Source of the DNA: a phage
Length of the DNA: 64,000 nucleotides
Sequence record: PX068454.1
Strand: one strand, 5' to 3'
Below the pieces are notes generated by a model. That model searched no databases. It saw nothing but the letters and a program-made list of their open reading frames with translations, and was not told the DNA's origin. Within the stretch, counting starts at the first letter, position 1, and every line of letters starts with the position of its first letter. Made by a program: the position numbers and the translations under genes. Below are positions 6,344-64,000 of the stretch, in pieces.

Positions 6344-6583
6344 TTAGCAGTGACGTGGTTTGCAATGGCCCCCAGGAGTATTATCACCACGCACATTACA
6401 AGAAAAATTATCTCTGTCGTTGTTCGATCCATTGTTATAAAATTCCTTAAGATCAGGCCTGAAAATAAAGCTTTCGTTATTGAATCCATCCCGCCAGGCG
6501 GCTGGCTTCAAATCTTCACTAAAGGGGTTAATTAACGTGGCATTATTTAAACGGCTGGTCCACATATTTTCTATTCCTCTCAA
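6344..6583 (-). CDS. hypothetical protein (79 aa), uncertain
   Basis: ORF track; RBS GAGAGG; overlaps upstream gene; competes with ORF 6307-6489. Confidence 0.35.
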   Translation of the reverse strand: MRGIENMWTSRLNNATLINPFSEDLKPAAWRDGFNNESFIFRPDLKEFYNNGSNNDRDNFSCNVRGDNTPGGHCKPRHC

Positions 6584-6947
6584 ATAGGCGATCCGCCTCA
6601 GTTAAACAAATCTCATGGGCGTGATCTCTGGTTTTAGCTTCATCGAAAACCTGTTGTGCAAGGCTGCAACGTAGGGAGACTGGAAGATCACTATAATAGG
6701 CGTTGACAAACGTTTGAGCGTCGTACAGGTCTGAAAATACTTTACCCTTTCTATTATTCCCCTTGTCAACAATTGCAAGGATAACCAATACAATAGTTGC
6801 AACCACTCCCAGGAAAATAGATATAACAAACCATAGAAAAGCGGATCTACCCATCTTGCCAGCGATCCAGGCGTTGAACAAGGCAACTACTACAGCCAAA
6901 ATAATAAATTCCATTCTATGTACCTCTTTTGCAGTTCTGTTTAACAA
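6543..6947 (-). CDS. membrane protein (134 aa, two predicted TM helices)
   Basis: Hydrophobic segments FIILAVVVALFNAWIAG and FLWFVISIFLGVVATIVLVILAIV. Confidence 0.6.
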   Translation of the reverse strand: MLNRTAKEVHRMEFIILAVVVALFNAWIAGKMGRSAFLWFVISIFLGVVATIVLVILAIVDKGNNRKGKVFSDLYDAQTFVNAYYSDLPVSLRCSLAQQVFDEAKTRDHAHEICLTEADRLFERNRKYVDQPFK

Positions 6948-20983: not shown

Positions 20984-21259
20984 CAATAGTTCAGGTAGGT
21001 CGTTAAGCTACCCCGCACCATTACGTGCATAGCCATACGTTTTCACGTAGGATCGGACCATCTCATATTCCTATGATAAGCAACCACAGGAATCCTCCCA
21101 TTTCGACCGCACTTGCTGGTCTACTTCCTTTCGGAATGGCCTCTGAGCGTTCGCTCTTTTGAGCGCTTCGTTGCGGATTACCTTGCCATAAGGTTTAGGC
21201 TTCCCGCAGTTAAAGAGGTTATTCGACATAGATTACTCTATGAAGCCACAATGTTATTT
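20984..21259 (-). ncRNA. candidate group I self-splicing intron (ORF-less, 276 nt)
   Basis: Joins ..IIYYH to DEYQLQV restoring HDE; 5' exon ends in U and intron ends in G; IGS GUGG pairs with exon CCAU; P/Q/R/S-like elements ACUGCGGGAAGCC, AAUCCGCAAC, CUCAGAGGCCAUUCC, GAGAUGGUCCGAUCC. Confidence 0.7.
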
Positions 21260-23683
21260 ATGGTAATAAATAATACGACGAACACCTTCATCGTACCACC
21301 CACGCTTCACCATCTGGTGGTGCATGAGTATCCCAACTAAGTCACACAGCGATGCACCACCATTCTGTTGGTATGCATTAAGTAAAGAGTGTTTAGATCG
21401 GGTCCAGATAGCATGACCATCAAAAGAGTAGATAAACTTCTTACCCGTTGCTTCCCAGAATTTCTCCAGATCCTCTTTACGCCCTTTAAGACCAGGGTTG
21501 GCATCCCAAAGCGCATCGATTACCCTTTGCCCCAACTCTGGGGAGATATCCAGCATATCTGCAACTTTATCTTTTTGTGCCCCATACATAACCCCATACG
21601 TGATAGGTTTACCGTCGTTACGAGACACCTCTCTACCTGCCACTTTTGTATATGCCTCAGCATTGTTTTGGTGTGCGTCCCCGTTACTTACAACATCGTA
21701 ATACAGGCCGTTGTCGAACTCAAAGGCACCCCAAGCCCCGATAAGCTGCTCTAAGTTGGACCCGTCAATACCGATCTCAAAGTATCCTGGAGGAACACCC
21801 CACAGACTACGCATCTCTTTACCCATAACCACTTTAGGAGATGGTTTAGGCATGTTTGCACAAATACTGTGTTTCTGTCGGGAAGTGTTTGTTAATCCAG
21901 AACTTTTAGCAGGAAGCTTATGGTCAATCTTCAAACGTGGGTGATTAAGAAGACCAGTATCAACCTTATCCTCCTTGATTGGATCAAGGACCGATCTGCG
22001 GTTTCGCAATGATAACCACAAGACGATATCTTTAGCCATCTCTCCGTTCAATTTTTCAAGATTCGGACATAGGTGTCCAAACGTATCTTTCAGTTGCGGA
22101 GAAGTAATAAGTGCCCTGGCTTTTCTACGTATTTTCCCGAATACTTCCTTTTTAATCCTTTCGGAGTTAGGAAAGCTTCGGAACTTGTGCACGGTTGTCT
22201 GGAACTTAGCATCAGTTTTGTTCCAGAAGTTGATAATCAGGTCACAATACTCTGACTCTAAAAGCTCGTCCATATATGCATATACTCGTGCATCAACATC
22301 TGCATCAGGTAGAGCTTTCTTCTTGCTGTCTTTAGTTACATCCTTAGTTCTCCACATTGTCGGAAGCCAACCAGCACTGATCAGGTATCGCTTAATGTCG
22401 TCCTGATTGCTGATTTTCATAAGTATCTTGCAGTCCGGCATTCGCTTCTGCTGTAGATCACTTATTGCCTGATCCATTAGCTCTTTAGGTAAAGGTTGTG
22501 GTGTTGAGGTGCCCTTAATATAGCCTCTCAAGAAATCAGCCATCTTATCGGGGTCTTTGCAGCCCATCTCTTCACACCATTTTATCCCCATCTTACTGAC
22601 ATCTCCTGTGGAGGTAAATGCTCGCTTAGGCGGGGCTTTGAACTCTAAAGCGCTCATATCTACAGGATAGCCAAGCTTATCTTTTAACCATTTCCAGCCA
22701 TTATTGGAAATTGTCCCATCTTGGTTGAACGGCTTTTCAGGGAATTTAGGCCGCTGAGATATTGATAACTCTTTTAAAGGAAGTTGAGGTTCAACACGAT
22801 CAGCGATCTCTTTCATCCACGCATCACAGCGGTCACGTAAAGCAATAGCCCCGTCTATGTCGAAATACACACCCTGACGGGCCTGCAGCTCCATCAGGAA
22901 GTGCTGCAGCATGCCTCGGCGTAATGCGTTCTTCCAGGTGATCTTCTTGAACCCTTTCGGCTTCTCTTTGGCAGGATCGTACATAAAGTTCTGCATGTCA
23001 GACTTGCCGTAGAATACACCTTTTGATTCCGCTACCAGTTCTTTCCAGAGCAGCTCCTGGATGATAACGTCCTCAAATACACGATCCACATACTTCCACA
23101 ACGGAAGATCGCGCCAGTCATCAATTTGAACTTTCTGGTTACCAAGAGCATAGCCCCATGCCATAAGGCCGTGAGGACCAACAGGCTGCATTTTCTTAGT
23201 GACCGGGTTGAATACAGAGTCCGGACAACCTTTTGGTAAAGGGCGATCAGGCCACAAGATTCGACTCATCGCCAACGTATCAAACAGGTTAACCTGGTGG
23301 TCGTTGATAGTCCCCATGCATTTAGGATCACGGAACATGTCAAAATGAATACCGGATAATCTTTCCATCAGCATAAAGTCATAACTGTAGCAGTTATGGC
23401 AGTTCAAAGCTGTTGGTGACCAGTCGGAATTGCCTGTAAGCCAACCTTCCAACTCCGAAAAATCTGCTATGCGAACTTCAAAATCTTTATAAAGAGTTTT
23501 CTTTGCCAGAATGAAGTTCTTAGCCTTTTCTATATCCTCCTCGGAGTAGTGTGTGCGGTCATTTAGAGGAAGGAACAGCATAAAACGGTTCTTATTCAGC
23601 TCTTTAAACAGACCGCAGTGATAATAAAGATCTGGGTCTTCCAGTAAACCGGATGACTCAAAATCGAACGACCACATGCTCAT
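21260..23683 (-). CDS. DNA polymerase (family A, with 3'-5' exonuclease domain), exon 1
   Basis: Exo motifs FDFESSG and CYSYD; motif A GIDGSNLEQL; motif B KPITYGVMYGAQ; stops one codon after YYH. Confidence 0.85.
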
Positions 23684-27881: not shown

Positions 27882-28223
27882 CTACTGAAGGTCTTCAGAG
27901 TCAAGCTCAAAAAGAATCAAACTGTGCATACCTGCAGAGAGATCAACACACCCTGCAACAATAAGGGTCTGATAGTAATGTTCAGCACCCTCGATGTCTT
28001 CGTTAAAATCTACAACAAGGTAGTCACCTTTGTTAAAGGTGTATTTGTCCGATGTAAACGCAAAACCTGCCCAGTCCCCTACTGCAGGATCTTTATCAGT
28101 CACCTTTGTTAGCAGTAGATCTTTTTCACGAGATCTTTTAGTAAAATCGTGAATCACAACATCCTTCTCTTCAGGAGTTGGATTGCCGCACACGTAGTTA
28201 ACTATATTTCTCCACAAACTCAT
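27882..28223 (-). CDS. hypothetical protein (113 aa)
   Basis: ORF track. Confidence 0.5.
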   Translation of the reverse strand: MSLWRNIVNYVCGNPTPEEKDVVIHDFTKRSREKDLLLTKVTDKDPAVGDWAGFAFTSDKYTFNKGDYLVVDFNEDIEGAEHYYQTLIVAGCVDLSAGMHSLILFELDSEDLQ

Positions 28224-29590
28224 ACGTCCCCCTCTTCGGCTCTGGTTTCAAAATCTTTCCTGACAATTTTGTCTAAGTCAGGGAATGTTGTATTGTAAAA
28301 CTCTACGACTCGCGGGTCAACAATAATGTCAACTTCTCTTAGTGGACGCAACAAGTTTATTCCCTGTATTGTCTTAACTCTACTCAAAGCGACATACGTC
28401 ATCCCAGGAGAGAAAGCTCCGTTCTTTCCAAGGTCTAGGTTGTAACAATCTAGAGTAAGTCCTTGACTTTTATGAGATGTTACGGCGTACCCAGATTTCA
28501 GAGGAAGTTGCTTGTATGACCCAATCACTACCCTCTCTATAAACTTCTCCATCTTCCTTTCTGCAATGTTGTATCTCTGAGAGGGCTTATACTCGTTATT
28601 CTCCCACAACCTCTGCTCTATGTCAACCTGTGTTCCATCTTCAAGCTCTACCACCACTGCCTTGTTCTTAAATTTAACAATTGTGGCACGTGTTCCGTTC
28701 ACATAATAAGGTACTTTGTGCGTCGGGTCAACATCGTTGGCGGTTATCATAACTTTCATGCCAATTTTCAACTTCATCTCCTGCTCAACTGGCAGGGTGG
28801 AGGGAAACTTACCCTTCATTTCACCAGTGTATACCTTCTCTGGGGCGTTGATGGCATCATAGAACCTTCTGTTCACTTCCTCTGCTTGTTTGTTGGTGGC
28901 GCAAATTGTGAGAGCATCTGTTGGTACACCACCTTTGTAACAGCGAGCATTAAGTTCTGCTACAACCTCTTTTATGCGACGACCCTCACGAACACAGTTG
29001 AGCATTGTGGCAAATCGAATAGACTCCTGTCGGAACTGATCTATTAGGGCTATGTTGTGGAGGTCAAGCTCTTTCCAAGATTCGGTATAGCAACACAGGT
29101 CCGTATGGTAGAAGTTGAAGTAGGCTTCCTTCTCCATAGAAGAGACAACAGGAGGTGCCTGGTAAAAATCGCCAAACAATATGACCTGTATGCCTCCGAA
29201 AGGTTTGTCATTTTTTCGAAGGAAGCGGAGTTTCCTATCCATCTCTATAAACTTATCAGCACGGATCATAGAGATTTCATCGATAATTAGGATGGTAAAT
29301 GCCTTGCTTTTCAAAGGCTTTGCTGTTTTTGCCCTTATTGCGGTCCAGTCTGACTCCATGCTCACACCTGCTGCAAGATCGAAGGTTCGGTGTGCTGTTG
29401 CTCCATTAACGTTTAAAGCGGCTACCCCTGTCGGGGCAACCGTTATGCAAGAGTCTCCATACATCGACTGGATCATGTTGATGAGATACGTCTTCCCACA
29501 ACCTGCAGGTCCTGAAACGAAGACATTCTCACCGCTCATGATTGCAACGAGGGCAGCATCTGTGCCTACATCATACTGCCCTTTTTCCAT
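28220..29590 (-). CDS. SF1 DNA helicase (Dda/RecD/Pif1-like)
   Basis: Walker A GPAGCGKT, Walker B ILIIDEISM, C-terminal SHKSQG..ALSRV motifs. Confidence 0.8.
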   Translation of the reverse strand: MEKGQYDVGTDAALVAIMSGENVFVSGPAGCGKTYLINMIQSMYGDSCITVAPTGVAALNVNGATAHRTFDLAAGVSMESDWTAIRAKTAKPLKSKAFTILIIDEISMIRADKFIEMDRKLRFLRKNDKPFGGIQVILFGDFYQAPPVVSSMEKEAYFNFYHTDLCCYTESWKELDLHNIALIDQFRQESIRFATMLNCVREGRRIKEVVAELNARCYKGGVPTDALTICATNKQAEEVNRRFYDAINAPEKVYTGEMKGKFPSTLPVEQEMKLKIGMKVMITANDVDPTHKVPYYVNGTRATIVKFKNKAVVVELEDGTQVDIEQRLWENNEYKPSQRYNIAERKMEKFIERVVIGSYKQLPLKSGYAVTSHKSQGLTLDCYNLDLGKNGAFSPGMTYVALSRVKTIQGINLLRPLREVDIIVDPRVVEFYNTTFPDLDKIVRKDFETRAEEGDV

Positions 29591-30795
29591 TACGCCTCCT
29601 CGTAAAGAATGTCGATAGTGTTACCGTCACGATCAACTACATATTCAATAGGGTCTCCATCTTTGCGTGCTTCCGGAGCTACCACAATCTCATAGCGGCA
29701 TGCACGGCACTTGGCGCTATTGTGTTGGTATGGCACACTAACCACATCTGCAGGGTCAACCATGACAGTCATTACAGTGCCGTAGCTCTTTGCATACTCT
29801 TTGCTGGCGCAGTGTAAGCCATAGGAGCACGCAGCTTCCGGATCATCCTCTACAAAGTTACGAGGCATGGATACAAAAGCACCCTGGTATTGTGGAACTT
29901 TACCACTGTGCCAATCTACCCACTTGCTGCCGTTAAACTGAACCCCTTTGTAGCAAATGATTCGACCATCTTCTGCAATCTGGATATCGTTGGCCTGCAT
30001 AAAATCGTAGAGCATGTTTACAGATTTTGCAGAAGGATTGCGTAGCAGGCGAACTAGGAATTTCACATAGCGGTCATCCAGCGTTCCGTCTGCATAATCT
30101 TTCTCAATTTTCTTTGCAATGGTGGATCGCATCTCTACACCGTAGTAGTAGAGCTTACCATCTTTCATGATCAGGTTGTCTGCAAGTGTGGTGAACTCAT
30201 TCTTGCGTTCCAGCCAGACAAGGATTTCACCAATTGCCTCATCATATTCCTGAACAGAGATATGGTCGAAGACTTTCTGGTAAACTTCCTCACTTTCGCT
30301 GCGGCGAATTTCAAAAATGCCTTCGTTGCAGGTGATCTGGAGGAGTTCCCCACAAATAACTACTAAAGGCTCGATGCTTCGAGTCTGTTGCTGAGACACA
30401 CTGCTCACCACCTCCAGCACCGGGTCTTTGACTTCTACTAAAGGTTCTTCTGACTTGATTGCCACCCCGGTGAACCCCACACCGTGAACAACACACAGTG
30501 GGTATATCACGCCCCAACGTTTAACGGAACCTTCGCCTAAGTCTAAGATCATGGCGTACTTACCGTTATCTTCCAGCCCATATCGAAATAGACGGGCCTC
30601 TTCACGGGTTTCAAAATCCTCACGGGTGTAGCAGACGCTGTCACGGTCAGGATCGAACAATTCTGGGGCACCCACTGCCAGTGTCCAGGTTGTGTCACCT
30701 TTCTCAATGGCACATGTGAAACCCTTCTTCTCAAGTTCTGCACGGCGGTCGCGTGCTTCTTTACGAGTTTTGAAATGTTCGTAGATGAAAATCAT
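29590..30795 (-). CDS. rIIB: rIIB-like protein
   Basis: C-terminal region (GLHCASKEY..DVVSVPYQHNSAKCRACRYEIV) matches recalled T4 rIIB; directly downstream of rIIA-like gene. Confidence 0.65.
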   Translation of the reverse strand: MIFIYEHFKTRKEARDRRAELEKKGFTCAIEKGDTTWTLAVGAPELFDPDRDSVCYTREDFETREEARLFRYGLEDNGKYAMILDLGEGSVKRWGVIYPLCVVHGVGFTGVAIKSEEPLVEVKDPVLEVVSSVSQQQTRSIEPLVVICGELLQITCNEGIFEIRRSESEEVYQKVFDHISVQEYDEAIGEILVWLERKNEFTTLADNLIMKDGKLYYYGVEMRSTIAKKIEKDYADGTLDDRYVKFLVRLLRNPSAKSVNMLYDFMQANDIQIAEDGRIICYKGVQFNGSKWVDWHSGKVPQYQGAFVSMPRNFVEDDPEAACSYGLHCASKEYAKSYGTVMTVMVDPADVVSVPYQHNSAKCRACRYEIVVAPEARKDGDPIEYVVDRDGNTIDILYEEA

Positions 30796-30805
30796 CTTGG
30801 TCTCC

Positions 30806-32788
30806 TTATTTGATGTTATTCTTTGTATCGATCAGTTCACGGTATTCAATCATAGCAGGAGTGTCCCAATATTTCAAGCCTACATGCTTCAAAAGCGGGT
30901 ATTTCTTTTCCAATCTTGCAATATAGGCCTTCCCGCATTTAACTCGGTTGGCGATTAAGATTTTGGCACGATGATTTAGCTCACTGTGCTTCCACGTGGT
31001 GTTACCTTCCCACTTGTGGAAATGTGGCCGATAATTTCCAAAATCTTGCATGGGAATAATTTTCCCTAATTGTCTATACAGGCTGTCATAAGAAGTCTCA
31101 TTTGCTGCACGGGTCAGTAAGAATTTCCAAGCATCCTCTTTCAACAGGTGCTCCACATTCTTCTCTGTAACATACTGGCAATCAGGATCAGTCCAAAGCA
31201 GACGAGATTCAGATACCAGATACAGATCTTCACCTTCAGGAATCTGAAGTGCCGCACGTACACGGTCATAATCTTGCTGGTAGATGTTACTCATCTGCCC
31301 CAGCCAACAACTTCCACGTTGGATATCACCCTCATAAGGGATGCAGTGTTTAATCTTCCGGAACTCTGCCTTAGTAATACGCTCACGGCGGAAGTAACCA
31401 TCCTTCTCAAGTTTTTTAACCCAATAGCCTGGCTCATAACGAGTTTTGGTTTCACCTTTCTTCGCAGGTCGGCGTGGAAGCTCCGATAACAATTTGACCG
31501 TATCTGCAAAGAACGGATGGTGTGCCGCCTCTTTAAACTCTTTCACCAGATCCGTGTTCCGGCAATAGAAAACGTTGCGTCCGGTGATCTCGCTTAAGTA
31601 GTTACACTTATTCCGGTTATATTTGCCGTCTCCGTCGTTAAATACAAGGTATACACCTCGTAAGAACTCCGACTTTCCGTAACGAGCATAGCCTATGCGG
31701 CCTTTATTTAAGCCGCCAGCGAAAATTTCACAATCGCCTAAGTCGCCAAGCCCTGTTTCTTCCCAACGGTTCCACATAAAGTTCTTGCCGAAGATGTGTC
31801 CGAACACTCCACTATTCTTCATCATTTCACGTGCTTCTGCGGAGGTTTTTGCCGTCTCCAGTTCTGCAACAACTTCTGCCCCGCGAAGACGTATACCTTC
31901 TTTGACAAATGCCTCCAGGCGATCCTGGAATCCACCGTCGTCATGGCCCTCTATGGTCCATTCACGCCCAGGGTTAATATTGCAATCCCCAATAGGAATT
32001 TCCACGCAGATTGCAGGGTAATCGGTCAATGTCTCCAGGAACTTGGAGCGGTAAGGTTGGTGACCCATCACAACACGGCTCTCATCAGAACTGGTATAAC
32101 CTTTCAGGATGGTCATTTTCCAGCCATCCTTCTCGTAATGATACTGTGCCTCAACCTTGTCACCTTCTAACATCTTACTGGTCATGGGATCGGTGACAGT
32201 GAACGGAAATTTTGCATAGCGCAGGCATGATGCAATAGCGGTGCGATATTTCAGAACATGCTCTTTCTTAACATGAAACTGAACTTTTACCCCGTTGTGC
32301 TCTTCAGTCTTCCGCTCACGGATCTTGGTGACATTTGGGATACCCTGGTCCAAGAACAATAGGTATGTGCTTTCCACACCGTTGTGCACACTGATTACAT
32401 CGAAAGTGTCCACCATGCTGAACGGGGCCTTTGAACCAACACCTTTATTGCCTACCAGAGCGTTGCTGTTGCGCTTGGTCGACTCACCGAGGTTCATGAA
32501 AGTGTTACGGACCATCTCTTCTGACATGCCTAATCCAACGTCCTGCACAAAGAAGTATGGTTCAAGGTCTGTAGGAGAGTGAATGATGATCGGTACATCA
32601 CCTCGTCCAGACTCAACATGTGAGTCCACAGCATTGAAGATCGGTTCACGGCAGCTTGCCAGTACCTTATCTTCATAAATCCCTTTGATGATTAGCCCAA
32701 AAGTCTCTTTGTTCAGAGAAATTGATCCCCTGGTTACCTCCATATTCCCAGTTAGCACCGCTTTAGTTTCATTGCTGTTTACAATCAT
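30806..32788 (-). CDS. rIIA: rIIA-like protein with N-terminal GHKL ATPase domain
   Basis: Bergerat motifs E..N..D (REPIFNAVD), DxGxGM (DVGLGMSEE), GxGxGSKxPF (GNKGVGSKAPF); N-terminus resembles T4 rIIA. Confidence 0.75.
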   Translation of the reverse strand: MIVNSNETKAVLTGNMEVTRGSISLNKETFGLIIKGIYEDKVLASCREPIFNAVDSHVESGRGDVPIIIHSPTDLEPYFFVQDVGLGMSEEMVRNTFMNLGESTKRNSNALVGNKGVGSKAPFSMVDTFDVISVHNGVESTYLLFLDQGIPNVTKIRERKTEEHNGVKVQFHVKKEHVLKYRTAIASCLRYAKFPFTVTDPMTSKMLEGDKVEAQYHYEKDGWKMTILKGYTSSDESRVVMGHQPYRSKFLETLTDYPAICVEIPIGDCNINPGREWTIEGHDDGGFQDRLEAFVKEGIRLRGAEVVAELETAKTSAEAREMMKNSGVFGHIFGKNFMWNRWEETGLGDLGDCEIFAGGLNKGRIGYARYGKSEFLRGVYLVFNDGDGKYNRNKCNYLSEITGRNVFYCRNTDLVKEFKEAAHHPFFADTVKLLSELPRRPAKKGETKTRYEPGYWVKKLEKDGYFRRERITKAEFRKIKHCIPYEGDIQRGSCWLGQMSNIYQQDYDRVRAALQIPEGEDLYLVSESRLLWTDPDCQYVTEKNVEHLLKEDAWKFLLTRAANETSYDSLYRQLGKIIPMQDFGNYRPHFHKWEGNTTWKHSELNHRAKILIANRVKCGKAYIARLEKKYPLLKHVGLKYWDTPAMIEYRELIDTKNNIK

Positions 32789-33285
32789 TTATTGCGCTCC
32801 TTGTAGTAGATATGGCTCCCGAATTGAGCTGTCCTCTGCATCTTTTTTGCCCATTTCGGTCGTACTTTTGTTGTATGGTAGTGTGTTGCTCCGCCTGTTA
32901 TATCCATAGCCATGTATGCAACATGGTTGTTATTATAGACCTTTAGAAGCATCTTTGCAAGACTTTTAGCGTGATCCCATGAATCTTTTTCTGTCACCTT
33001 AAAAGTTTTGCCGTGGTTTGTCCACGAAAACTGGTTAGGTTGGTAGACAATCTTTCTTATAGTGTCTGGGTATTTGGGGTGAGATTTCCTGTTTAGTGTG
33101 GCAAATCCGGATGCCAGCATACCCATCGTGCCATCCCCTCTAGCCTCCCTGTAGATATTGCATGCTAGAATGTTTTCCTTAGTATCCGACGGCTTGCAAG
33201 TGTGATATACTTTTTGTTTTGGTGCTGCAACAACAGGCAGCGATAAAAATGCGCTCAAAATAATAGCAAAGATTTTAATTTTCAC
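32785..33285 (-). CDS. secreted cell-wall hydrolase (SleB/CwlJ-like)
   Basis: Signal peptide MKIKIFAIILSAFLSLPVVAAP; motifs NIYREARGD and GMLASGFATLNR. Confidence 0.7.
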   Translation of the reverse strand: MKIKIFAIILSAFLSLPVVAAPKQKVYHTCKPSDTKENILACNIYREARGDGTMGMLASGFATLNRKSHPKYPDTIRKIVYQPNQFSWTNHGKTFKVTEKDSWDHAKSLAKMLLKVYNNNHVAYMAMDITGGATHYHTTKVRPKWAKKMQRTAQFGSHIYYKERNK

Positions 33286-33289
33286 AATA

Positions 33290-33322
33290 ACTCCAAATAG
33301 AAAATCCCCGCCGAAGCGGGGT
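33290..33322 (-). terminator. rho-independent terminator
   Basis: Hairpin CCCCGC-TTCG-GCGGGG followed by T-rich run; identical hairpin at 59767-59782. Confidence 0.5.
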
Positions 33323-33334
33323 GTGTCTTAGAAA

Positions 33335-33715
33335 TTAATCGTAGTGTGCCAAAATCTCTCCATCGTTGCAAGTCCCCTCTACGAAGTTGTGAAGATTCAT
33401 GCATTCATCTTGATAGAAGAATTTACCGCTTTTCAGCCGTAGACCAAACAACTCCGCATCTCCACGATGGCAAGCCTCTACAAGTTCATAGATTTCATAC
33501 GGTAATTCCCCATCGTCATGGAAGAACCCCGCTTTATCGTTGACATAGATGAAGAAATAGTCACTGCTGTCGCAAGCGTCCAGTATTTTAAACCAGATTT
33601 CATCCACATCTTTTTCTCGGATATCGATCACACAAGTGGAGCTGCATTCGTACTCCTTCTCCGGCTCCTCGGTCAATACCACCAAGTAGTTTCCCCGCTT
33701 ACCTACTTTAGCCAT
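33335..33715 (-). CDS. hypothetical protein (126 aa)
   Basis: ORF track. Confidence 0.55.
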   Translation of the reverse strand: MAKVGKRGNYLVVLTEEPEKEYECSSTCVIDIREKDVDEIWFKILDACDSSDYFFIYVNDKAGFFHDDGELPYEIYELVEACHRGDAELFGLRLKSGKFFYQDECMNLHNFVEGTCNDGEILAHYD

Positions 33716-33724
33716 ACAACCTCC

Positions 33725-34909
33725 TCAAGCTTTAGCTAAAATGGCGCTAAACTCTTCACCAAACTCTTTTACAATCTTCATCAGGTTTGGGTATGCTTTG
33801 ATCAGCTGAGCAACGATCTTGTCCCTGCCTTTACCAATAAGTAAGGCATTTCCTAAGGCGTTAGGTTTCATCATCGCCATAAAGACTGAGAATACAAAGT
33901 CTCGGTTCTCATCCTTGAAATTTTCCCAAAGGAAATCAAGGAAGTTTGCCACACAGCTGACGAGATCTTCGTCGGAGATACTTGCATTTTCCATCATATT
34001 ACGAATAGCGATACAACCTTCAGACCCCAGAATCCACAAGATGTCTGGCTGCTTAGGACCTACATATTCTTTGCAGCCTCCTGCCATAATCCGACCGATT
34101 TCTGGCAAGTTTCGTTTCTTGGTGTGGTAGGTCCAAATTTCTACCGCTGCAGTGTGACCAATGGCACCTTGTAGAAGGACACGGGCCATAGCGTCAGAAA
34201 TAATACCGCTGTCAAAATCGTGCAAGATGTCAGATGCAGCAACCCAAGAGCGCGGTGTAGCAAAAGATGGACAATTAATCTCAGCCATGGCCTCATAATT
34301 ATCGATGGCCGATGGGACTCTTTTCAGATATCCAATTACCGAGGAGTGCACCCCATTAAGGAATGCATAGTCCTCAATAAACACCTCTGCACTGCTTGTA
34401 ACTTCTACAATGATAAAGCGGTTAGCTAGAGGAGCTTCGAGTGCCGAAAGAACAGCACCGTCTGTAGCACGGTTACCTGCAGCTACAAAAACAGAGCCTT
34501 TAGGAAATGCATAGGTGCCGCACTTGTGGTCGAGCATAATTTGCATTGCAACCTTCTGCAGGTAGTTATCTGCATGAGTAAGCTCGTCTAGAAAGATAAT
34601 TCCGCTCCAGTCCGGATCTGCAGGCCAAAATTCTGGAATTGCAAACACTGTACGTGTAGTTCCATCTGCCTCCACAGGGATAGGCAGTCCAGATAAGTCA
34701 GCAGGATCTTTATCTGACAACCGCACGTCAACCAGGTTGTCATCTCGCTCACCGAACATATTATCAGCAATCTGCTTCATCACCTGGCTCTTCCCCACGC
34801 CCATCGGTCCTAAAATCAGGACAGATCGGTTATGACGCTGGGCAAATTGAACAATGGCTGGCAACTCGCGGACAGTGATTTGACCACTTTCGAATACGTT
34901 TCTCGACAT
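33725..34909 (-). CDS. MoxR-like AAA+ ATPase (CobS-like)
   Basis: Walker A GPMGVGKS, Walker B IIFLDEL; 394 aa. Confidence 0.75.
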   Translation of the reverse strand: MSRNVFESGQITVRELPAIVQFAQRHNRSVLILGPMGVGKSQVMKQIADNMFGERDDNLVDVRLSDKDPADLSGLPIPVEADGTTRTVFAIPEFWPADPDWSGIIFLDELTHADNYLQKVAMQIMLDHKCGTYAFPKGSVFVAAGNRATDGAVLSALEAPLANRFIIVEVTSSAEVFIEDYAFLNGVHSSVIGYLKRVPSAIDNYEAMAEINCPSFATPRSWVAASDILHDFDSGIISDAMARVLLQGAIGHTAAVEIWTYHTKKRNLPEIGRIMAGGCKEYVGPKQPDILWILGSEGCIAIRNMMENASISDEDLVSCVANFLDFLWENFKDENRDFVFSVFMAMMKPNALGNALLIGKGRDKIVAQLIKAYPNLMKIVKEFGEEFSAILAKA

Positions 34910-35178
34910 TAGTAAAAGTCCTCTACTTGTGTGTAAGTGTTTTCAAAGTTTTCCAAAACAGACATCACATCGGATCTGTCAATATCATACGCAACTCTCC
35001 AGCCATATGCAACCCTTTCTGCTGTTGCCTCTTCTGGCGCTAGTCGTCTGCTGGCATAAAAGAGTGTTGGAGTACACTTTCTTGCTTGCCCTCTAACTTT
35101 CCCATAATAATATCTGTGAATATCTTTGTCAAAATTTAATTCTTTTTCTGCACGAAGTTCGTACTGCTGGTATAACAT
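34909..35178 (-). CDS. hypothetical protein (89 aa)
   Basis: ORF track. Confidence 0.5.
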   Translation of the reverse strand: MLYQQYELRAEKELNFDKDIHRYYYGKVRGQARKCTPTLFYASRRLAPEEATAERVAYGWRVAYDIDRSDVMSVLENFENTYTQVEDFY

Positions 35179-35222
35179 CTCTACTGCTCCTTAAGCAGCA
35201 TCCTTGCTGCCATCCATACCCA

Positions 35223-35603
35223 CTAAAATGCAGTCCGAATCCAGACAAGGTTCTTATCCGCCCAATCATAGAGGCAAGTCATTGCACTATTGAATTGCTC
35301 ACACGGAGGATAATCTTCTTCCATCTTGCGCATAGCAGAGCCTTGTGGGTAAAGCTCCCGTGCTGCAAACCACGCGTCGTAGTCATCAACGGTATCGAAG
35401 TAGTATACAACATCCTCCAACTCAGGATCGAACTTTGAACTATCAGGATCCAGCTGTTCAGGGAACTTGGAGCGTAACTTGCCAGCCACAATACTTGCCA
35501 ACTCGCTAACATGCTTGTTGTCCCACTCTACCAGTTTCCCGTCTTCAGTTATGCGTCCTAACCACTGATCATGAAGGTCAACTGTTGTCTTCCACTGGGC
35601 CAT
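35223..35603 (-). CDS. hypothetical protein (126 aa)
   Basis: ORF track. Confidence 0.55.
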   Translation of the reverse strand: MAQWKTTVDLHDQWLGRITEDGKLVEWDNKHVSELASIVAGKLRSKFPEQLDPDSSKFDPELEDVVYYFDTVDDYDAWFAARELYPQGSAMRKMEEDYPPCEQFNSAMTCLYDWADKNLVWIRTAF

Positions 35604-35605
35604 TA

Positions 35606-35857
35606 TCAGTCTACCTCTTCTTCTCGTTGCAGTTCAAGATACCCATAGGTCTGGATATCTTCAAGGGTGTGGAACTCTCCATCTGCTGCTAAGGCACGGA
35701 CAACCTGGCATAGAGTTTTATAAGGTACTTTCTCCAAACCCAGATTCAGCGCAGGAAAAAACTTATCTAAGTCAACAAAATATACAAACTGTAGCTCACC
35801 AGTTTCAAAAGGCGTATCTTCGATAAACATCTTCTCGGCATTAGTCAAGATCTGCAC
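35606..35857 (-). CDS. hypothetical protein (83 aa)
   Basis: ORF track. Confidence 0.5.
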   Translation of the reverse strand: MQILTNAEKMFIEDTPFETGELQFVYFVDLDKFFPALNLGLEKVPYKTLCQVVRALAADGEFHTLEDIQTYGYLELQREEEVD

Positions 35858-35862
35858 TTTTA

Positions 35863-36219
35863 TTATTCTACCCCCTCTTCTTTTTCTTCAGCATTAGTTT
35901 CAGTGCTACCCCACTCTGGAGTTTCCACCTCGATAGTGAACTCACGCACTACACGGTAATTGCCCATGAAGCGCTCCACTTCTTCAAGGCTTATGGAGAG
36001 GCCATTGGCAACCAAATCTGCAGCACCCTTCTCTACCAGGTAGTCCAGATTGGCTTCCAAGGCTTCAGGCTCAAACCCTGTCAATGCAATCATATAACCT
36101 TCCCCTTCATCAAGGAGGGCAATACAGCCCAACTGATTTTCTTTAAAAAAGCAGTGACCATCACTATTGATTGGTTGCTCATTGCAGTAAATAGCTGCAC
36201 GATAAGTAACTTTAGACAT
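35863..36219 (-). CDS. hypothetical protein (118 aa)
   Basis: ORF track. Confidence 0.55.
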   Translation of the reverse strand: MSKVTYRAAIYCNEQPINSDGHCFFKENQLGCIALLDEGEGYMIALTGFEPEALEANLDYLVEKGAADLVANGLSISLEEVERFMGNYRVVREFTIEVETPEWGSTETNAEEKEEGVE

Positions 36220-36231
36220 TGGTAGGCCTCC

Positions 36232-36510
36232 TTAGGCAACTGTCATTTTACATTCTTGAAATTTTAGCACAAGACGGTGATTGTGTCTAGTGTCTAAAAA
36301 GATTTTTTCAACCATCAGGCACACGGTGTAACCGTCCATCTTGTTGACAACAAAATCCTCAGGGTGAGGGAGAATGTCCCCAGGATTGGGGAAACATAAC
36401 CCGCTCAAGAAGGCATCATCGGTGGTGGACCTGATGGATTTCCACACACTATCTGCCTGGACACTCTCACCAACATAATATACACTACCACATGCCTTCA
36501 TCATAGTCAA
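36232..36510 (-). CDS. hypothetical protein (92 aa)
   Basis: ORF track. Confidence 0.5.
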   Translation of the reverse strand: MTMMKACGSVYYVGESVQADSVWKSIRSTTDDAFLSGLCFPNPGDILPHPEDFVVNKMDGYTVCLMVEKIFLDTRHNHRLVLKFQECKMTVA

Positions 36511-37406
36511 ATCTCCGCGTAAATTAAACTGGAATCAGTATACTTCTTTAGTGGGTAAATATCCTGTCCATAGATGCCGTCATTAAACACCTCATCTACC
36601 CAAAGGCTACACTTATATCCCATCATCTCTAAAACACCCATCTCTTCTTCGGTAAACTTATCACCGCTCTTGCAAGATGTCAACACCTCATTCTGTACTC
36701 TTGCTACCTCGAAGCGATTATTGGCAATATCGCTATTAGCGATCAAATACTCACCCAAAGGGTGTGCGGCATTAAAGATGCACAGTGGACGGTTGACGTA
36801 ATAGTCTCCAGGTGTATAAAAATTATTGAGGTCTTTCACTAGAACATTCTTATCAGTCACTTCATTTATAACATCATGCATATCGCACATCTTTATATGT
36901 TTGAGGATTCCATCCCCCATCACAAAATAAAAACTTGCTGAAACACTTTCGGCATAGATCTTACTAGATCCGTTGTAGTTGTATTTTACTCGGATGCTAA
37001 CGGGGGTTTTTCCTGTCGCGTTAGCCATCATCCAAAGAAATGGCAGCTCATACTTCTCCTCTGAGGAAACAAAAGGTGAAGTAGCCAGAGATCGAAAACC
37101 TCCAGAGAAGTTGAAAGTTACAGAACCGCTCCGGCGGTATGATACTGCGTATTCTACTTTTATATCAACGTATCCGTTGGAGTAAGTATGCCCTCCATTA
37201 TCAAGGTATGTCCACTTATCAGACCCGGATACCAACCTCCGCTCAATTACCTTCATCACCATAGGAATTAGCGGATTAGTACAAACCGATCTTGAAGTAG
37301 CTTTATCATCCAAAGCCTCGTAAATTGCAGAAAGGATATCTCCAGCTGAAAGATTGGTTGTTATATCCTGTTGCCACCTGGTGCTAAAACTGTTAAGATT
37401 TGCCAT
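36507..37406 (-). CDS. hypothetical protein (299 aa), first gene of leftward operon
   Basis: ORF track; promoter 37447-37475 upstream. Confidence 0.6.
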   Translation of the reverse strand: MANLNSFSTRWQQDITTNLSAGDILSAIYEALDDKATSRSVCTNPLIPMVMKVIERRLVSGSDKWTYLDNGGHTYSNGYVDIKVEYAVSYRRSGSVTFNFSGGFRSLATSPFVSSEEKYELPFLWMMANATGKTPVSIRVKYNYNGSSKIYAESVSASFYFVMGDGILKHIKMCDMHDVINEVTDKNVLVKDLNNFYTPGDYYVNRPLCIFNAAHPLGEYLIANSDIANNRFEVARVQNEVLTSCKSGDKFTEEEMGVLEMMGYKCSLWVDEVFNDGIYGQDIYPLKKYTDSSLIYAEI

Positions 37407-37446
37407 GAATAAGTGCTCCTATGTTAGTTTTCTTTCGAATGGGTGC

Positions 37447-37475
37447 ACTATATCGGAGATTTAGAGTAAAGTCAA
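37447..37475 (-). promoter_or_regulatory. sigma70-type promoter TTGACT-17-TATAGT (leftward)
   Basis: Divergent partner of plus-strand promoter 37489-37517. Confidence 0.55.
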
Positions 37476-37488
37476 CACGTTTTTGAGG

Positions 37489-37517
37489 TTGACATCTCCC
37501 CAGGCTCTTGGTAAGAT
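37489..37517 (+). promoter_or_regulatory. sigma70-type promoter TTGACA-17-TAAGAT (rightward)
   Basis: Hexamers read directly; drives plus-strand block. Confidence 0.6.
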
Positions 37518-37548
37518 TTCTCCACCCACAGAGAACAAGAGACAACTC

Positions 37549-38538
37549 ATGAATCTTGAAAAATATTATACACCAGAAGAGTTAGAGCGCTTGCTCAAAA
37601 AATACAGACGCAAACAGAATAACGCACGGAAACGGGATATAGAGTTCAACCTGTCATGGGAAGAATATCTCCTATTTGGTAAAAAACTTTTAGGAGAGGG
37701 AGTATGCGACTATACCCTTATACCTTTCGACATGCACACAGATGAAAACGGACTGGGAAATCCTTTCTACCCATCTCTGGAGCGGATAGATGATGAAGGT
37801 CCTTATGCGGTTGATAATTGTTGTGTGGTGGGATTGAGATGCAACTCCCTAAAGGACTGCCTGGTAGATAAAAAGACCGCAGTCTTGATTAAAGACAAAA
37901 CTGATCGAAAAATTGTCCAGCAGATGATGCTCCACCTGAGCGAAGAGCGTATGGAGAAATTGAAAGGTGATTACACTTTTGAAGATTTCATCTTGCAATA
38001 TGGAACGGAAGAGGATAAACTGGCACTCTTTGACGAAGAATGGGAGGAAGATATGTCACCAATGCAGGATTTTAAAAACTTCATGGCTAATCGTGGAGCC
38101 AACAAGCACATTTCTGACATTGTAAACGAGCCTGTAGTAGAGGAGATTGAAGAGATGACGCAACAGGCTTACGAAGAGGAAAAAGAGCCTCAAGGGGTCG
38201 AAGAAGAGCTTACAGAAGAGGTTCCTGCACTGCCTGACGATGTTGAGATTGCCAAAGCTTACACTTTCTATTGCCAGACGTTCTACGATGCAGGTATGAA
38301 AGTTGATCTGTCCTTCAGCCAGTTTAAGAGCACATACATTCGAAAATGTTGTGCTTTAACTGGTGAGCGTCTCGGGGCCGGACTTAAACCACTATTAGTT
38401 ACCGACTGGAACAAAGGTTTCACCAAAGGTAACTTCATGGTAGTATCTCCAATCATGGAAAAGGCTATGACAGACCTTATGAAGACCACTCGCATGACAA
38501 TGACCGAGTTGGCTGGTATTTTCAAGCACGTTAAATAA
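37549..38538 (+). CDS. protein with two HNH_3-like endonuclease-type modules
   Basis: Likely ATG at 37549; motifs SLERIDDEGPYAVDNCCVVGLRCNSLK and a second related C-terminal module. Confidence 0.5.
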   Translation: MNLEKYYTPEELERLLKKYRRKQNNARKRDIEFNLSWEEYLLFGKKLLGEGVCDYTLIPFDMHTDENGLGNPFYPSLERIDDEGPYAVDNCCVVGLRCNSLKDCLVDKKTAVLIKDKTDRKIVQQMMLHLSEERMEKLKGDYTFEDFILQYGTEEDKLALFDEEWEEDMSPMQDFKNFMANRGANKHISDIVNEPVVEEIEEMTQQAYEEEKEPQGVEEELTEEVPALPDDVEIAKAYTFYCQTFYDAGMKVDLSFSQFKSTYIRKCCALTGERLGAGLKPLLVTDWNKGFTKGNFMVVSPIMEKAMTDLMKTTRMTMTELAGIFKHVK

Positions 38539-38571
38539 TGACAGGGGCCATTGGCCCCTTCTGGAGTTTTA

Positions 38572-40032
38572 ATGGATAGCAGAAGTTCAGAAATCATTAC
38601 CGCACAAAAAGATGATGCCTTGCGAATGCTGCAGGCCGCTCGCATGTACCTTCTTGAAAAGCTGCCGTTTTATGGCACACTGTTGTCAGGGTTGCAGTTC
38701 GTAGAAAACCACACATGGTGCTCCACTATGGCAACAGACCATAAACGCATCTACTACAGCCCTGAGTTCATTATGGGGTTGGCAGATGAGCGTAAAACCA
38801 TTCTTAAAGCATCTCTGACTGACAAGCAGTTTGAGATGGCTGAGGTTTTCTATTCCCCAAAATCTGTGAAAGAGGTGGCCTTTCTTCTGTCACATGAGGT
38901 GGGGCATATTATCTGTGATCATCTGGTCCGTGGTAAAAGCTTTGAGCCGGAACTGTTCAATATTGCTTGTGATCACGTTATCAACACAGGTCTTGTGGTT
39001 GACTTTAGCAAGCCTCCTTGTGTTTTCTTCCCGAAGGGGAAAAGCACTGAGTTCGTAAAAGGTAAGCCTTTTGGCTTCTTAGCTAGTTGCTACTGTGACA
39101 TGAAGTTTCATGGATGGATTGCTGAGAACGTCTATGCAGTTCTTGATAAACAAAGAGATCAGAATGGCGGTAAAAGTAAGAACGGTAAAGGTGAGAACTC
39201 CCAAGGAGATAAACGACAAACCGATGATCACATGAGGGGGAACGGTGGCACCAGTGATGATCTTGGAAAGGCTATGGGGTATGATCAGCCGCAACCAGTA
39301 ATCAGTCAATCTGATAAAGATCAGGCCATGCAGGACTCTGGTGACATGTTGGAAGCAGCAATGCAAGCTTCAGGAGGTCGTTGCCCTGAGGCGGTGCGCG
39401 AGTTTGTCAAAAACAAAGGCAAGCCTGTAATCAACTATATAGATATTATTAAGCAACGTATGTTGTCTAAACGAAAGGCCGAGCTAACCTACAGAAAACC
39501 TGGTCGCCGATCTGGGTCTTTGACCACCACAATGCGAAAAGTTGGAGCTATAAACAAGAATCAACACGTTATTGTTCCTGGTCGTAATCCGGAAAACACC
39601 ATAGATATTGTAGTGGCTTTGGACGTTTCTGGATCGATCTCGCAAAGAACTTTAAAGAAAATGTTCAATGAGATCACCGGGTTGTGCAATTTGTATAAAG
39701 AGTTTAAGGTTACGATGTTCTGTTGGTCAACCGAGGTTGGAGAGGTTAAAGTATACACTCGCGGTAACATCGATGAGATGATCAACTATGAGGTCCACTC
39801 AACATGGGGCACAACAGCCGCCTGCGTGTTCGAGTATCTGGATGCTAACATACCGAATGCAAAAGATGTCATCGTCCTTACCGACCTCTACTTTGAGCAT
39901 AACTTTGAACAAAAGGCTGTTGACAACAAGTGGAAAAAGTACGATACTTTATGGGTTCTCACCGAAGGGTATAATAAAAATTATATCCCGAGCTTTGGGA
40001 AAACTGTGGAATTAATCGAGTATGCTAAGTAA
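38572..40032 (+). CDS. vWA-domain protein with N-terminal HExxH metallopeptidase-like domain (CobT-like)
   Basis: HEVGH zinc-binding motif; MIDAS motif DVSGSIS; ATG at 38572 after hairpin. Confidence 0.7.
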   Translation: MDSRSSEIITAQKDDALRMLQAARMYLLEKLPFYGTLLSGLQFVENHTWCSTMATDHKRIYYSPEFIMGLADERKTILKASLTDKQFEMAEVFYSPKSVKEVAFLLSHEVGHIICDHLVRGKSFEPELFNIACDHVINTGLVVDFSKPPCVFFPKGKSTEFVKGKPFGFLASCYCDMKFHGWIAENVYAVLDKQRDQNGGKSKNGKGENSQGDKRQTDDHMRGNGGTSDDLGKAMGYDQPQPVISQSDKDQAMQDSGDMLEAAMQASGGRCPEAVREFVKNKGKPVINYIDIIKQRMLSKRKAELTYRKPGRRSGSLTTTMRKVGAINKNQHVIVPGRNPENTIDIVVALDVSGSISQRTLKKMFNEITGLCNLYKEFKVTMFCWSTEVGEVKVYTRGNIDEMINYEVHSTWGTTAACVFEYLDANIPNAKDVIVLTDLYFEHNFEQKAVDNKWKKYDTLWVLTEGYNKNYIPSFGKTVELIEYAK

Positions 40033-40047
40033 GAGAGGATAGTATTT

Positions 40048-40305
40048 ATGGCAACAGAGGTAGTAATTAAAGCTGAACGCCCAGTTAAAAAAGCTATCAA
40101 CACGTTCCCTGTAGGAACCATTGTGAGCATGATTACAGAGTCAGGCCGTGTATCTACACTGCTAATCGTGAAATCTGCATGCTCATCTTGTGTGTGGGCA
40201 TACGATCTTGACGAGAAAGAACTGAAAGATTTTGTCGGGGAGCTGAAAGCAACAGAGCTTGACGCTCGTATCGAAGTATTTGGTGAAACTATGGAGGAAG
40301 AGTAA
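40048..40305 (+). CDS. small protein, tandem paralog 1 (85 aa)
   Basis: Shares FxxG(T/E)(I/V)V pattern with the next two ORFs. Confidence 0.5.
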   Translation: MATEVVIKAERPVKKAINTFPVGTIVSMITESGRVSTLLIVKSACSSCVWAYDLDEKELKDFVGELKATELDARIEVFGETMEEE

Positions 40306-40568
40306 TGACTACAAAAATCACCATTGCAGAACCAAAAGCTAACACGCAACCTATCGAAAAGTTTAAATGCGGTGAGGTGGTAACATTCACACCAGATAAT
40401 GAAGATGCCAAGATTTTTGCCATGGTTACAGCCGAGTGGATGTGTGACAATACCACACAGGTGCTGCGTTTTGACACCTATCTTACAGATGAAATCAGGA
40501 ACGACAAGATCGTGACTGGTGTGGATACTGAGATTATTTTCTACAAGAGCTTTTTAGAGGGTTTCTGA
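40305..40568 (+). CDS. small protein, tandem paralog 2 (87 aa)
   Basis: ORF track; shared pattern. Confidence 0.5.
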   Translation: MTTKITIAEPKANTQPIEKFKCGEVVTFTPDNEDAKIFAMVTAEWMCDNTTQVLRFDTYLTDEIRNDKIVTGVDTEIIFYKSFLEGF

Positions 40569-40569
40569 T

Positions 40570-40803: not shown

Positions 40804-40819
40804 CAAGAAGGAGAGAGCC

Positions 40820-41511: not shown

Positions 41512-41513
41512 TT

Positions 41514-63630: not shown

Positions 63631-64000
63631 TAATACCTCCAGACATCAACAACAATAGAATCTTTCATGTCGAACATAAAGACCCCTTTATCACCTTTCG
63701 CCCAAATCTGGTTGTTCCAGAACACACCCGCGGTGAGTCCGTTCAGTCCTTCGAAAATAACAATATCCCCACGCTGAACCTGTTTAGGAGTGTCCAGTCG
63801 AGTCATAAAGAAATCAAAAATAGTAGGCAGGTGTGTGGTTTTGAAATGAAGCATGCACCATCTCTTGCTTTCCAACTCTGTTTTATACGTTCCTTCGAAG
63901 TTAGAAAGAAAATCTGTTCCGTATTGGGCATCAACACACTTAGCCGCAAAGGTGCAACAATCGTGGAATCCCCATTCAAAAGGTATGGTGGCCTCTTCGT
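63630..64000 (-). CDS. 5'-truncated tail assembly protein with NlpC/P60-like Cys motif (lambda K-like)
   Basis: Frame stays open to window edge (..FEWGFHDCCTFAAKCV..); the 81-aa track ORF is its C-terminal part. Confidence 0.4.
   Translation of the reverse strand, partial: EEATIPFEWGFHDCCTFAAKCVDAQYGTDFLSNFEGTYKTELESKRWCMLHFKTTHLPTIFDFFMTRLDTPKQVQRGDIVIFEGLNGLTAGVFWNNQIWAKGDKGVFMFDMKDSIVVDVWRY

Follow-up and report, generated by a model that had tools for sequence, protein, structure and literature searches.

The 64,000-nucleotide (nt) stretch of phage DNA analysed here (sequence record PX068454.1, hereafter the window) carries a gene for a 166-amino acid (aa) SleB-like cell wall hydrolase, located on the minus strand at 32785..33285 directly ahead of the rIIA and rIIB genes. 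This hydrolase is most likely an accessory periplasmic muralytic enzyme and not the main endolysin, because a close relative of the phage carries a separate endolysin, spanins and a holin candidate; a lysis-related accessory role is plausible. The overall reading that we favour, with a confidence only slightly above even, is that of a conserved, accessory, exported SleB-type wall enzyme in a phage whose main endolysin is separate and in which rII is a mere neighbour. The gene block itself is the published rV5-type annotation found again, as its genes were annotated in 2013 and as the signal peptide of the hydrolase and its conservation throughout the subfamily were noted in 2020. The new details are a hairpin ahead of the hydrolase gene in several genera, a gene encoding a small transmembrane protein after it in sister genera, and rIIA-rIIB as an insert.

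To judge from its sequence and predicted structure, the hydrolase consists of a single domain and belongs to the SleB/CwlJ (Hydrolase_2) family, whose enzymes are of the lytic transglycosylase type. Its sequence matches Pfam Hydrolase_2 (PF07486) with 70.4 bits (cutoff 27, E 2.1e-19) over profile positions 2-100 of 100, falls in PHROG 938, which is labelled 'endolysin', and matches the catalytic domain of SleB in the Protein Data Bank (PDB; 4F55, E 2.5e-6). An AlphaFold (AF2) model built from the single sequence was unusable, its predicted local distance difference test score (pLDDT) being 47; rebuilt with an alignment of 24 sequences, the model reached a pLDDT of 94.9, and a Foldseek search against the PDB matched only the SleB catalytic domains 4FET and 4F55 (probability 1.0, target-normalised TM-score 0.75-0.79). 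An earlier note on this DNA had described the protein as a SleB/CwlJ-family hydrolase with a signal peptide and had proposed homology search and structure prediction as a check; these returned a Hydrolase_2 domain and the SleB catalytic fold and, together with a signal-like N-terminus, they bear out that description.

The putative active site is intact. Glu47, in the motif YREARG (codon 33147..33145, minus strand, placed by alignment with SleB), aligns with the glutamate of YGESRGE in SleB, which we take to be the catalytic one. Glu47 is invariant in the 156 aligned relatives (156/156), as is R66, and Y45, Q85, S87, W145 and H158 are kept in nearly all of them. That SleB has a catalytic glutamate is stated in PMC11148199, which cites Li et al. 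2012. A SleB-fold effector of a type VI secretion system (T6SS) rounds and bursts Escherichia coli from the periplasm and requires its catalytic glutamate to do so (PMC11148199). Loss of a SleB homologue of Zymomonas changes peptidoglycan composition and growth, and its over-expression impairs growth. These two sets of results indicate that SleB-fold enzymes can act on Gram-negative walls.

A true orthologue of the spore cortex-lytic SleB was ruled out. Indeed, the protein scores only 48.3 bits against the NCBIfam SleB equivalog TIGR02869 (cutoff 236.5), matching profile positions 83-201 only, and a Pfam scan found no PG_binding domain in it, hence none of the N-terminal peptidoglycan-binding kind. 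Databases and papers label the SleB-like protein variously 'endolysin', 'amidase' or 'SleB', and several GenBank records say 'endolysin'; the label 'amidase' is probably wrong, because descriptions of the solved SleB structures call the enzyme a lytic transglycosylase.

The N-terminus of the hydrolase has the organization of a Sec signal peptide, predicted from hydrophobicity and reading by eye to cover aa 1-20, MKIKIFAIILSAFLSLPVVA (33226..33285, minus strand), and followed by APKQK. It includes a basic n-region, a strongly hydrophobic core of 16-17 residues and a helix-breaking proline, Pro17. The predicted cleavage site falls between VVA and AP, with small residues at -3 and -1 (AXA-like), and the best 12-residue N-terminal stretch has a mean Kyte-Doolittle hydrophobicity of 2.7. 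An N-terminal hydrophobic stretch is found in 131 of 160 collected relatives. As the alignment reveals N-termini that vary in sequence and keep their hydrophobic character, a real signal peptide is indicated, with cleavage probably after Ala20. Furthermore, Cys30 and Cys42 covary perfectly, since 28 of the 156 aligned relatives have both and 113 have neither, and since the 15 in which only the second cysteine is aligned carry another one at most 20 residues upstream, i.e. shifted in the alignment. This covariation fits a disulfide formed in the periplasm. Signal peptide and features of an oxidising compartment together point to a Sec-exported periplasmic protein.

Two other kinds of lysin were considered and rejected. 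A signal-anchor-release (SAR) endolysin does not fit the hydrophobic region I5-A21, which has no Gly and ten Ile/Leu/Phe/Val residues, and in which Pro17 and the sequence VVA followed by A fit a cleavable signal. A virion-associated lysin was rejected because of the export signal and because gp2, the counterpart of the hydrolase in phage rV5, is not among the virion proteins listed for this phage (PMC3606486).

The main endolysin would be encoded elsewhere in the genome. No endolysin or spanin gene was found in the window, which has only a homologue of the 'putative holin' bas56_0110 and part of a baseplate hydrolase. The close relative AlexBoehm (BASEL phage Bas56), in which the block is bas56_0063-0065 and which is 96.6% identical across the region, encodes a separate 156-aa endolysin, bas56_0202 (PHROG 90, E 3e-56), that in our own reading of the sequence closely resembles lambda R. 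AlexBoehm also has an i-/o-spanin pair adjoining the terminase gene, a tail lysozyme and a putative holin. Its lysis genes are scattered and form no single cassette, and all of them but the holin candidate correspond to regions outside the window. In rV5, gp89 (Phage_lysozyme) was called the 'obvious lysin' and gp129 was proposed as holin (PMC3606486), and LysECP26, a 156-aa endolysin of another rV5-like phage, lysed 29 of the 29 Gram-negative strains tested (PMC9728275).

These data weaken the suggestion of the earlier note that the SleB-like hydrolase may be an endolysin. Indeed, the note had named a canonical lysis cassette elsewhere in the genome as what would speak against its proposal, and AlexBoehm has, though scattered, a separate lambda-R-type endolysin, spanins and a putative holin, this kind of endolysin being experimentally muralytic in the case of LysECP26. 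Moreover, the canonical endolysin differs between genera: it is lambda-R-like in Vequintavirus, the modular gp146 in PVP-SE1, and an M15 peptidase in CB7 and Septuagintavirus. The SleB-like gene stays constant while the endolysin type is swapped, which suggests that the SleB-like protein does something that the endolysin does not.

Concerning the other wall-related genes, the bas56_0110 homologue (6546..6914, minus strand; 123 aa, 97.6% aa identity) has two hydrophobic segments near its N-terminus, followed by a long soluble tail, belongs to PHROG 13090 (function unannotated) and is the only lysis-related candidate in the window besides the hydrolase. The homologue of bas56_0029, a 'cell wall hydrolase protein' (63633..63998, minus strand), lies in the baseplate/tail-fibre cluster and is cut by the window end. 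It is a further annotated wall-hydrolase gene of this genome, beside those of the SleB-like hydrolase, the tail lysozyme and the endolysin.

According to the open reading frames (ORFs) of the window, the hydrolase, rIIA, rIIB and helicase genes are all on the minus strand, and the order of transcription is MoxR-type ATPase (34909..33725; rV5 gene 4), conserved hypothetical gene of 126 aa (33335..33715; PHROG 12370, rV5 gene 3), hydrolase (GTG start; rV5 gene 2, bas56_0063), rIIA (30806..32788, 660 aa; rV5 gene 1), rIIB (29590..30795, 401 aa; rV5 gene 238) and PIF1/Dda-like helicase (28220..29590, 456 aa; Pfam PIF1 E 1.1e-32, PHROG 325 E 6.4e-112). The stop codon of the hydrolase gene and the start codon of rIIA overlap by 4 nt (ATGA), rIIB starts 10 nt past the rIIA stop, and the rIIB stop and the helicase start have 1 nt in common; synteny shows that the helicase gene is the neighbour conserved on the downstream side of the block. 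The earlier note had placed the hydrolase downstream of rII with a 4-nt overlap; the overlap and the coordinates stand, but the gene is 5' of rIIA, hence upstream and not downstream of it, because all these genes are on the minus strand. The observation that no holin or spanin gene adjoins the hydrolase gene in this window holds, its neighbours encoding the 126-aa soluble protein and rIIA, with no adjacent lysis cassette.

The 6.7-kb block is 96-98% identical at the nt level to more than 80 GenBank genomes of Vequintavirus (rV5-like) phages. The AlexBoehm/Bas56 and navn records carry the same genes in the same order, annotated as 'putative cell wall hydrolase', rIIA, rIIB and helicase. Table S3 of the rV5 paper lists gene 1 as rIIA (660 aa), gene 2 as a cell wall hydrolase (166 aa, PF07486), gene 3 (126 aa), gene 4 as MoxR, gene 238 as rIIB (401 aa) and gene 237 as a PIF1 ATPase (456 aa) (PMC3606486), and the gene lengths of the block match those of rV5 genes 2, 1, 238 and 237 exactly. 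The hydrolase is encoded at an identity of at least 95% in 116 phage records. In addition, the SleB-like protein was described as conserved in all Vequintavirinae genera and as having a signal peptide, and expression of its CB7 homologue was reported to be toxic to E. coli, on 'data not shown' (PMC7344957). The arrangement, which had been called unusual, is thus the usual one of this genus: the same block is annotated in the rV5 type genome and in dozens of Vequintavirus records, the order hydrolase-rIIA-rIIB-helicase is also kept in relatives whose hydrolases are 48-55% identical, and exported SleB-like genes are also found in the early region of T5-like phages. Besides, this rV5-like E. coli phage sequence has 96-98% identity with about 16 unannotated records named 'Campylobacter phage' (GenBank MG065646-MG065682, host Campylobacter jejuni), whose host label looks doubtful.

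The rII genes are clearly identified. The 660-aa protein matches PHROG 612 'RIIA' over aa 1-658 (E 2.9e-124) and Pfam HATPase_c_3 with 34.9 bits (cutoff 25), and the GHKL motifs E48-x3-N52-x2-D55, D83-x-G85-x-G87 and G113-x2-G116-x-G118 can be read in its sequence, which confirms that it is rIIA with an N-terminal GHKL ATPase fold, as had been proposed. The match of rIIB had likewise been correctly assigned to its C-terminal half, as PHROG 609 covers aa 132-375 only (E 1.3e-61). The N-terminal extension of rIIB, aa 1-131 (30403-30795, minus strand), contains two repeats of about 40 aa with the pattern F-x-T-R-x-E-A-R...G and aligns in the large viral contigs L014 and L016 and not in L008, L010 and L012. 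Its aa 8-42 match Pfam SPOR with 22.5 bits when scanned alone (cutoff 21) and with 19.3 bits in the full-length scan. SPOR domains bind the glycan strands of peptidoglycan. In the absence of an export signal, rIIB is unlikely to use such a domain in the periplasm, and the match may reflect a similar fold only.

The region ahead of the hydrolase gene also bears on its expression. A terminator-like hairpin, CCCCGCTTCGGCGGGG, with a T-rich tail (33295..33321, minus strand), lies between the 126-aa gene and the hydrolase start. The GC-rich hairpin (33321..33306) ends 20 nt ahead of the GTG and is followed by the T-rich ATTTTCTATTT, and a GGAG Shine-Dalgarno sequence (33291..33294, minus strand) is located 5 nt ahead of the GTG. 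The hairpin is identical to rV5 terminator t003, for which a delta-G of -16.0 kcal/mol is given (PMC3606486 Table S4). A hairpin of another sequence is likewise found 8-27 nt ahead of the hydrolase start at L010, L012, L014, L015, L017, L018, L032, L019, L087 and L090, which include loci of the Mydovirus, Seunavirus and Certrevirus types as well as several metagenomic ones. This conservation of position and not of sequence suggests that the hairpin is functional, and it may attenuate or time the expression of the hydrolase, rII and helicase genes.

As there is no room for a promoter between hairpin and start, the hydrolase transcripts must come by read-through. The nearest strong sigma-70-like promoter upstream on the same strand, at 37475..37447, is taken as rV5 P010, since both hexamers agree. 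The rV5 late-promoter motif is absent from the minus strand from 33286 to 46505, i.e. over about 13 kb upstream of the hydrolase gene, and the rV5 authors regard genes 10-1-238-164 as one leftward unit that includes replication genes (PMC3606486). Non-ATG starts of the hydrolase gene recur, with GTG here and TTG in PVP-SE1, L010 and phAPEC8. The terminator in front, the GTG start and the lack of a late-promoter motif nearby suggest that expression of the hydrolase is low or delayed; a literature search found no time-resolved transcriptome for Vequintavirinae. Within the hydrolase gene itself, a pattern match to a consensus promoter (32960..32932, 10 of 12 positions) could drive rIIA independently.

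Relatives of the hydrolase are numerous. A word-indexed search returned 10 proteins and an exhaustive one 11,334 cluster representatives, and relatives are encoded in more than 578 viral contigs and in 1,161 phage records. The order hydrolase-rIIA-rIIB-helicase is kept in the large contigs L008-L016, in which the hydrolase is 48-55% and rIIA 32-44% identical. In most of these loci, a small ORF encoding 1-3 hydrophobic segments is present between the hydrolase and rIIA genes; it has 51-57 aa and belongs to PHROG 24442 in the Mydovirus- and Seunavirus-type loci, and has 77 aa in L012 and 63 aa in L016. Certrevirus-type loci (L017, L018, L032) and phage LTH01 carry the hydrolase gene, a gene for a 65-70-aa protein with two transmembrane segments and then the helicase gene, without rII, and a 65-aa candidate holin with two transmembrane segments was reported after the SleB-like gene in Certrevirus (PMC7344957). 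The small gene is missing in rV5-like phages and L015; in phAPEC8 and BF23, the hydrolase gene is flanked by neither it nor rII. The small transmembrane proteins form at least four unrelated sequence groups, and the occurrence of at least four unrelated groups at one position resembles, by analogy, the pattern that holins show.

The sequences read as a conserved slot made of the hydrolase gene, with or without a membrane-protein gene, followed by the helicase gene, in which rIIA-rIIB would be a cassette present or absent in between. Such presence or absence speaks against rII and the hydrolase being obligatory functional partners. A permissive tblastn search of the window for a relocated homologue of the small membrane proteins of sister genera gave chance-level matches only. 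The idea that viral Hydrolase_2 genes as a rule have a neighbour encoding a small transmembrane protein was rejected, as one was seen in only 4 of 55 non-redundant loci by a heuristic that takes the longest ORF and therefore missed some known cases; the pattern appears confined to the Vequintavirinae-like group. A further candidate, a two-gene module in common with T5-like phages, made of the hydrolase gene and rV5 gene 3 (for which a resemblance to T5.083 was stated), was rejected because no similarity to the gene upstream of BF23 sleB was found.

Several annotations at these loci merit comment. The PHROG 24442 gene between the SleB-like gene and rIIA is located at 5036-5191 in L090 (Klebsiella phage VLCpiM5a), at about 4536-4700 in L087 (PVP-SE1), at 6545-6700 in L008 and at 6536-6709 in L014. 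It is unannotated in VLCpiM5a. In PVP-SE1, gene 244 was annotated in another frame, a 1-nt difference in a T-run after the ATG separating the start from the conserved membrane-protein frame, which may be a sequencing or annotation error. The 'endolysin' coding sequence of VLCpiM5a (L090 4648-5031) starts internally and omits the signal-peptide N-terminus; an upstream TTG gives 4501-5031. Lastly, two Hydrolase_2 genes in the same orientation, separated by about 1.3 kb, are present in each of the metagenomic viral contigs L026, L028, L036 and L038.

The favoured reading can be put as a mechanism. The hydrolase precursor would reach the periplasm through a Sec signal peptide, which would be removed by a cut after Ala20; the mature enzyme, probably stabilised by a Cys30-Cys42 disulfide, would cleave the glycan strands of ordinary E. 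coli peptidoglycan by means of Glu47. Its gene would belong to an early/middle transcription unit of replication genes, in which the terminator and the GTG start probably keep its expression low or delayed. The main endolysin would be a separate, cytoplasmic and holin-dependent enzyme of the lambda-R type. Our best guess is that a small periplasmic pool of hydrolase would be harmless as long as the membrane is energised and would help to dissolve the wall once it is depolarised at lysis; such a latent pool would resemble Sec-exported endolysins. The rIIA-rIIB pair would be a neighbouring cassette, translationally packed against the hydrolase gene by chance, and no required partner.

Several points weigh against this reading. 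Our literature search found no experiment that shows what the SleB-type phage protein does, and the toxicity of the CB7 homologue was reported as 'data not shown'. Bacillus SleB requires muramic-delta-lactam, which E. coli peptidoglycan does not contain, and action on normal peptidoglycan is extrapolated solely from other members of the family. The signal peptide was judged by eye and from hydrophobicity, and the timing of hydrolase expression is read from gene layout. In PHROGs, no small membrane protein of the sister genera is annotated as a holin; moreover, rV5-like phages have no membrane-protein gene beside the hydrolase gene. Finally, the early/middle placement of the gene argues against a purely end-of-cycle role in lysis.

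This placement leads to the best surviving alternative, a periplasmic role of the SleB-like protein during infection that is unrelated to final lysis, which we consider a real but clearly less probable possibility. Such a role could be, for example, the remodelling or loosening of the sacculus for cell enlargement or for an envelope-spanning process, the release of muropeptides, or interference with competitors. It would suit a gene located among replication genes in a leftward early/middle unit with no late-promoter motif nearby, and the exported homologue of T5-like phages is also in an early region, apart from lys and hol. It also agrees with the lack of a membrane-protein gene beside the hydrolase in phAPEC8 and BF23, with the constancy of the gene across genera in which the endolysin was swapped, which suggests a non-redundant function, and with the housekeeping role of a bacterial SleB homologue in peptidoglycan remodelling. 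However, the data do not point to any particular process, the small transmembrane-protein genes of four sister lineages look like lysis-cassette partners, and the toxicity of the CB7 homologue fits a lytic enzyme.

A single envelope-control module, made up of the hydrolase, rIIA, rIIB and, in the phages that have it, the small membrane protein, is improbable; in it, rII would restrain or time the hydrolase. T4 rII mutants have a rapid-lysis phenotype, the genes are tightly packed with a 4-nt overlap, the order hydrolase-rIIA-rIIB is kept down to about 50% identity of the hydrolase and 32-44% of rIIA, and the N-terminus of rIIB has its weak SPOR match. But rII adjoins the hydrolase gene in one lineage only; loci of the Certrevirus and LTH01 types have the hydrolase and membrane-protein genes and lack rII, no rII is located near the hydrolase gene of T5-like and phAPEC8-like phages, and T4, which has rII, is not known to have a SleB-like gene. 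Furthermore, the absence of an export signal makes a periplasmic SPOR function of rIIB unlikely. In an evolutionary variant that is scarcely more than speculative, the hydrolase, the small membrane protein of the sister genera and rIIA/rIIB would be the remains of one ancestral envelope or lysis-timing module, in which rII, perhaps via the SPOR-like N-terminus of rIIB, would sense or restrain the damage done to the wall by the periplasmic hydrolase. If true, this would provide a handle on the long-unsolved biochemical role of rII.

We hold it to be quite unlikely that the SleB-like protein is the real, holin-independent endolysin and the lambda-R-type enzyme a secondary one. Its membership of PHROG 938 'endolysin', the 'endolysin' label of several GenBank records, its conservation in all Vequintavirinae genera and its holin-like neighbours in sister genera would agree with this. 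Against it stand the full complement of lysis genes (soluble endolysin, two spanins, holin candidates) in AlexBoehm, whose identity over the region is 96.6%, the experimentally demonstrated lytic activity of the lambda-R-type endolysin of an rV5-like phage, and the early/middle placement, preceding terminator and GTG start, which point to low expression; besides, an exported and constitutively active main lysin would kill the host prematurely. Finally, an inactive relic or a mis-called ORF, which the non-ATG start and the terminator immediately upstream might suggest, is very improbable given that all family-invariant residues are intact, that 116 phage records encode the protein at an identity of at least 95%, that the Shine-Dalgarno sequence is good and that the AF2 model is confident.

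Apart from these genes, the window contains a group I intron at 21034-21269 on the minus strand (Rfam RF00028, 64.7 bits, E 4e-14), at a position that corresponds to the split DNA polymerase gene of AlexBoehm with its inserted homing endonuclease (bas56_0073/0074).

The finding itself matters little, as the block was annotated in rV5 in 2013 and is present in more than 100 deposited genomes. It does point to a real gap: relatives of this SleB-type protein are encoded in more than 1,100 phage records, those examined have an N-terminal export signal and, in the groups for which neighbouring genes or the literature were consulted (Vequintavirinae genera, T5-like phages, Phapecoctavirus), a different, canonical endolysin is also encoded. 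At stake is the possibility that a second enzyme for cutting the wall, one independent of holin, is in routine use among large virulent coliphages.

Among known systems, the closest are gp2/gp1/gp238 of rV5 (Kropinski et al. 2013, PMC3606486) and the corresponding genes of Bas56, which have the same lengths, order, overlap and terminator t003 at about 97% nt identity; there is no difference of substance, and the window belongs to another isolate of the same genus. In Pectobacterium phage CB7 (Certrevirus; PMC7344957), CB7_83 is a homologous exported Hydrolase_2 protein encoded at the same position ahead of the helicase gene. However, the gene of the CB7_82 holin candidate, with its 65 aa and two transmembrane segments, overlaps the hydrolase gene there and rIIA/rIIB are lacking, whereas rIIA follows directly here. 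The 'SleB' of T5-like phages (BF23_00100, AKFV33 ORF81) is likewise small, exported and of the Hydrolase_2 family; its gene belongs to the early region, away from lys and hol, in phages with a separate endolysin and holin. Its signal peptide is MKAALLLVAALTFSFSSQA, followed by S; its catalytic domain has an identity of only about 40%, its gene has other neighbours, with no rII nearby, and no terminator hairpin was found upstream of it.

Bacillus SleB (PDB 4FET, 4F55) has in common with the phage protein the fold of the catalytic domain and the catalytic glutamate, but the phage protein has neither the N-terminal peptidoglycan-binding domain nor the YpeB partner. Functionally, the comparison extends to the Sec-exported and SAR endolysins. 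Lys44 of oenophage fOg44, Lyz of P1 and R of phage 21 reach the wall without a holin pore and are restrained until the membrane is de-energised; each is the sole endolysin of its phage and is expressed late. The hydrolase of the window differs from these enzymes in its N-terminus, which looks like a cleavable signal peptide and not like a Gly/Ala-rich SAR anchor, and in the existence of a second, canonical endolysin alongside it.

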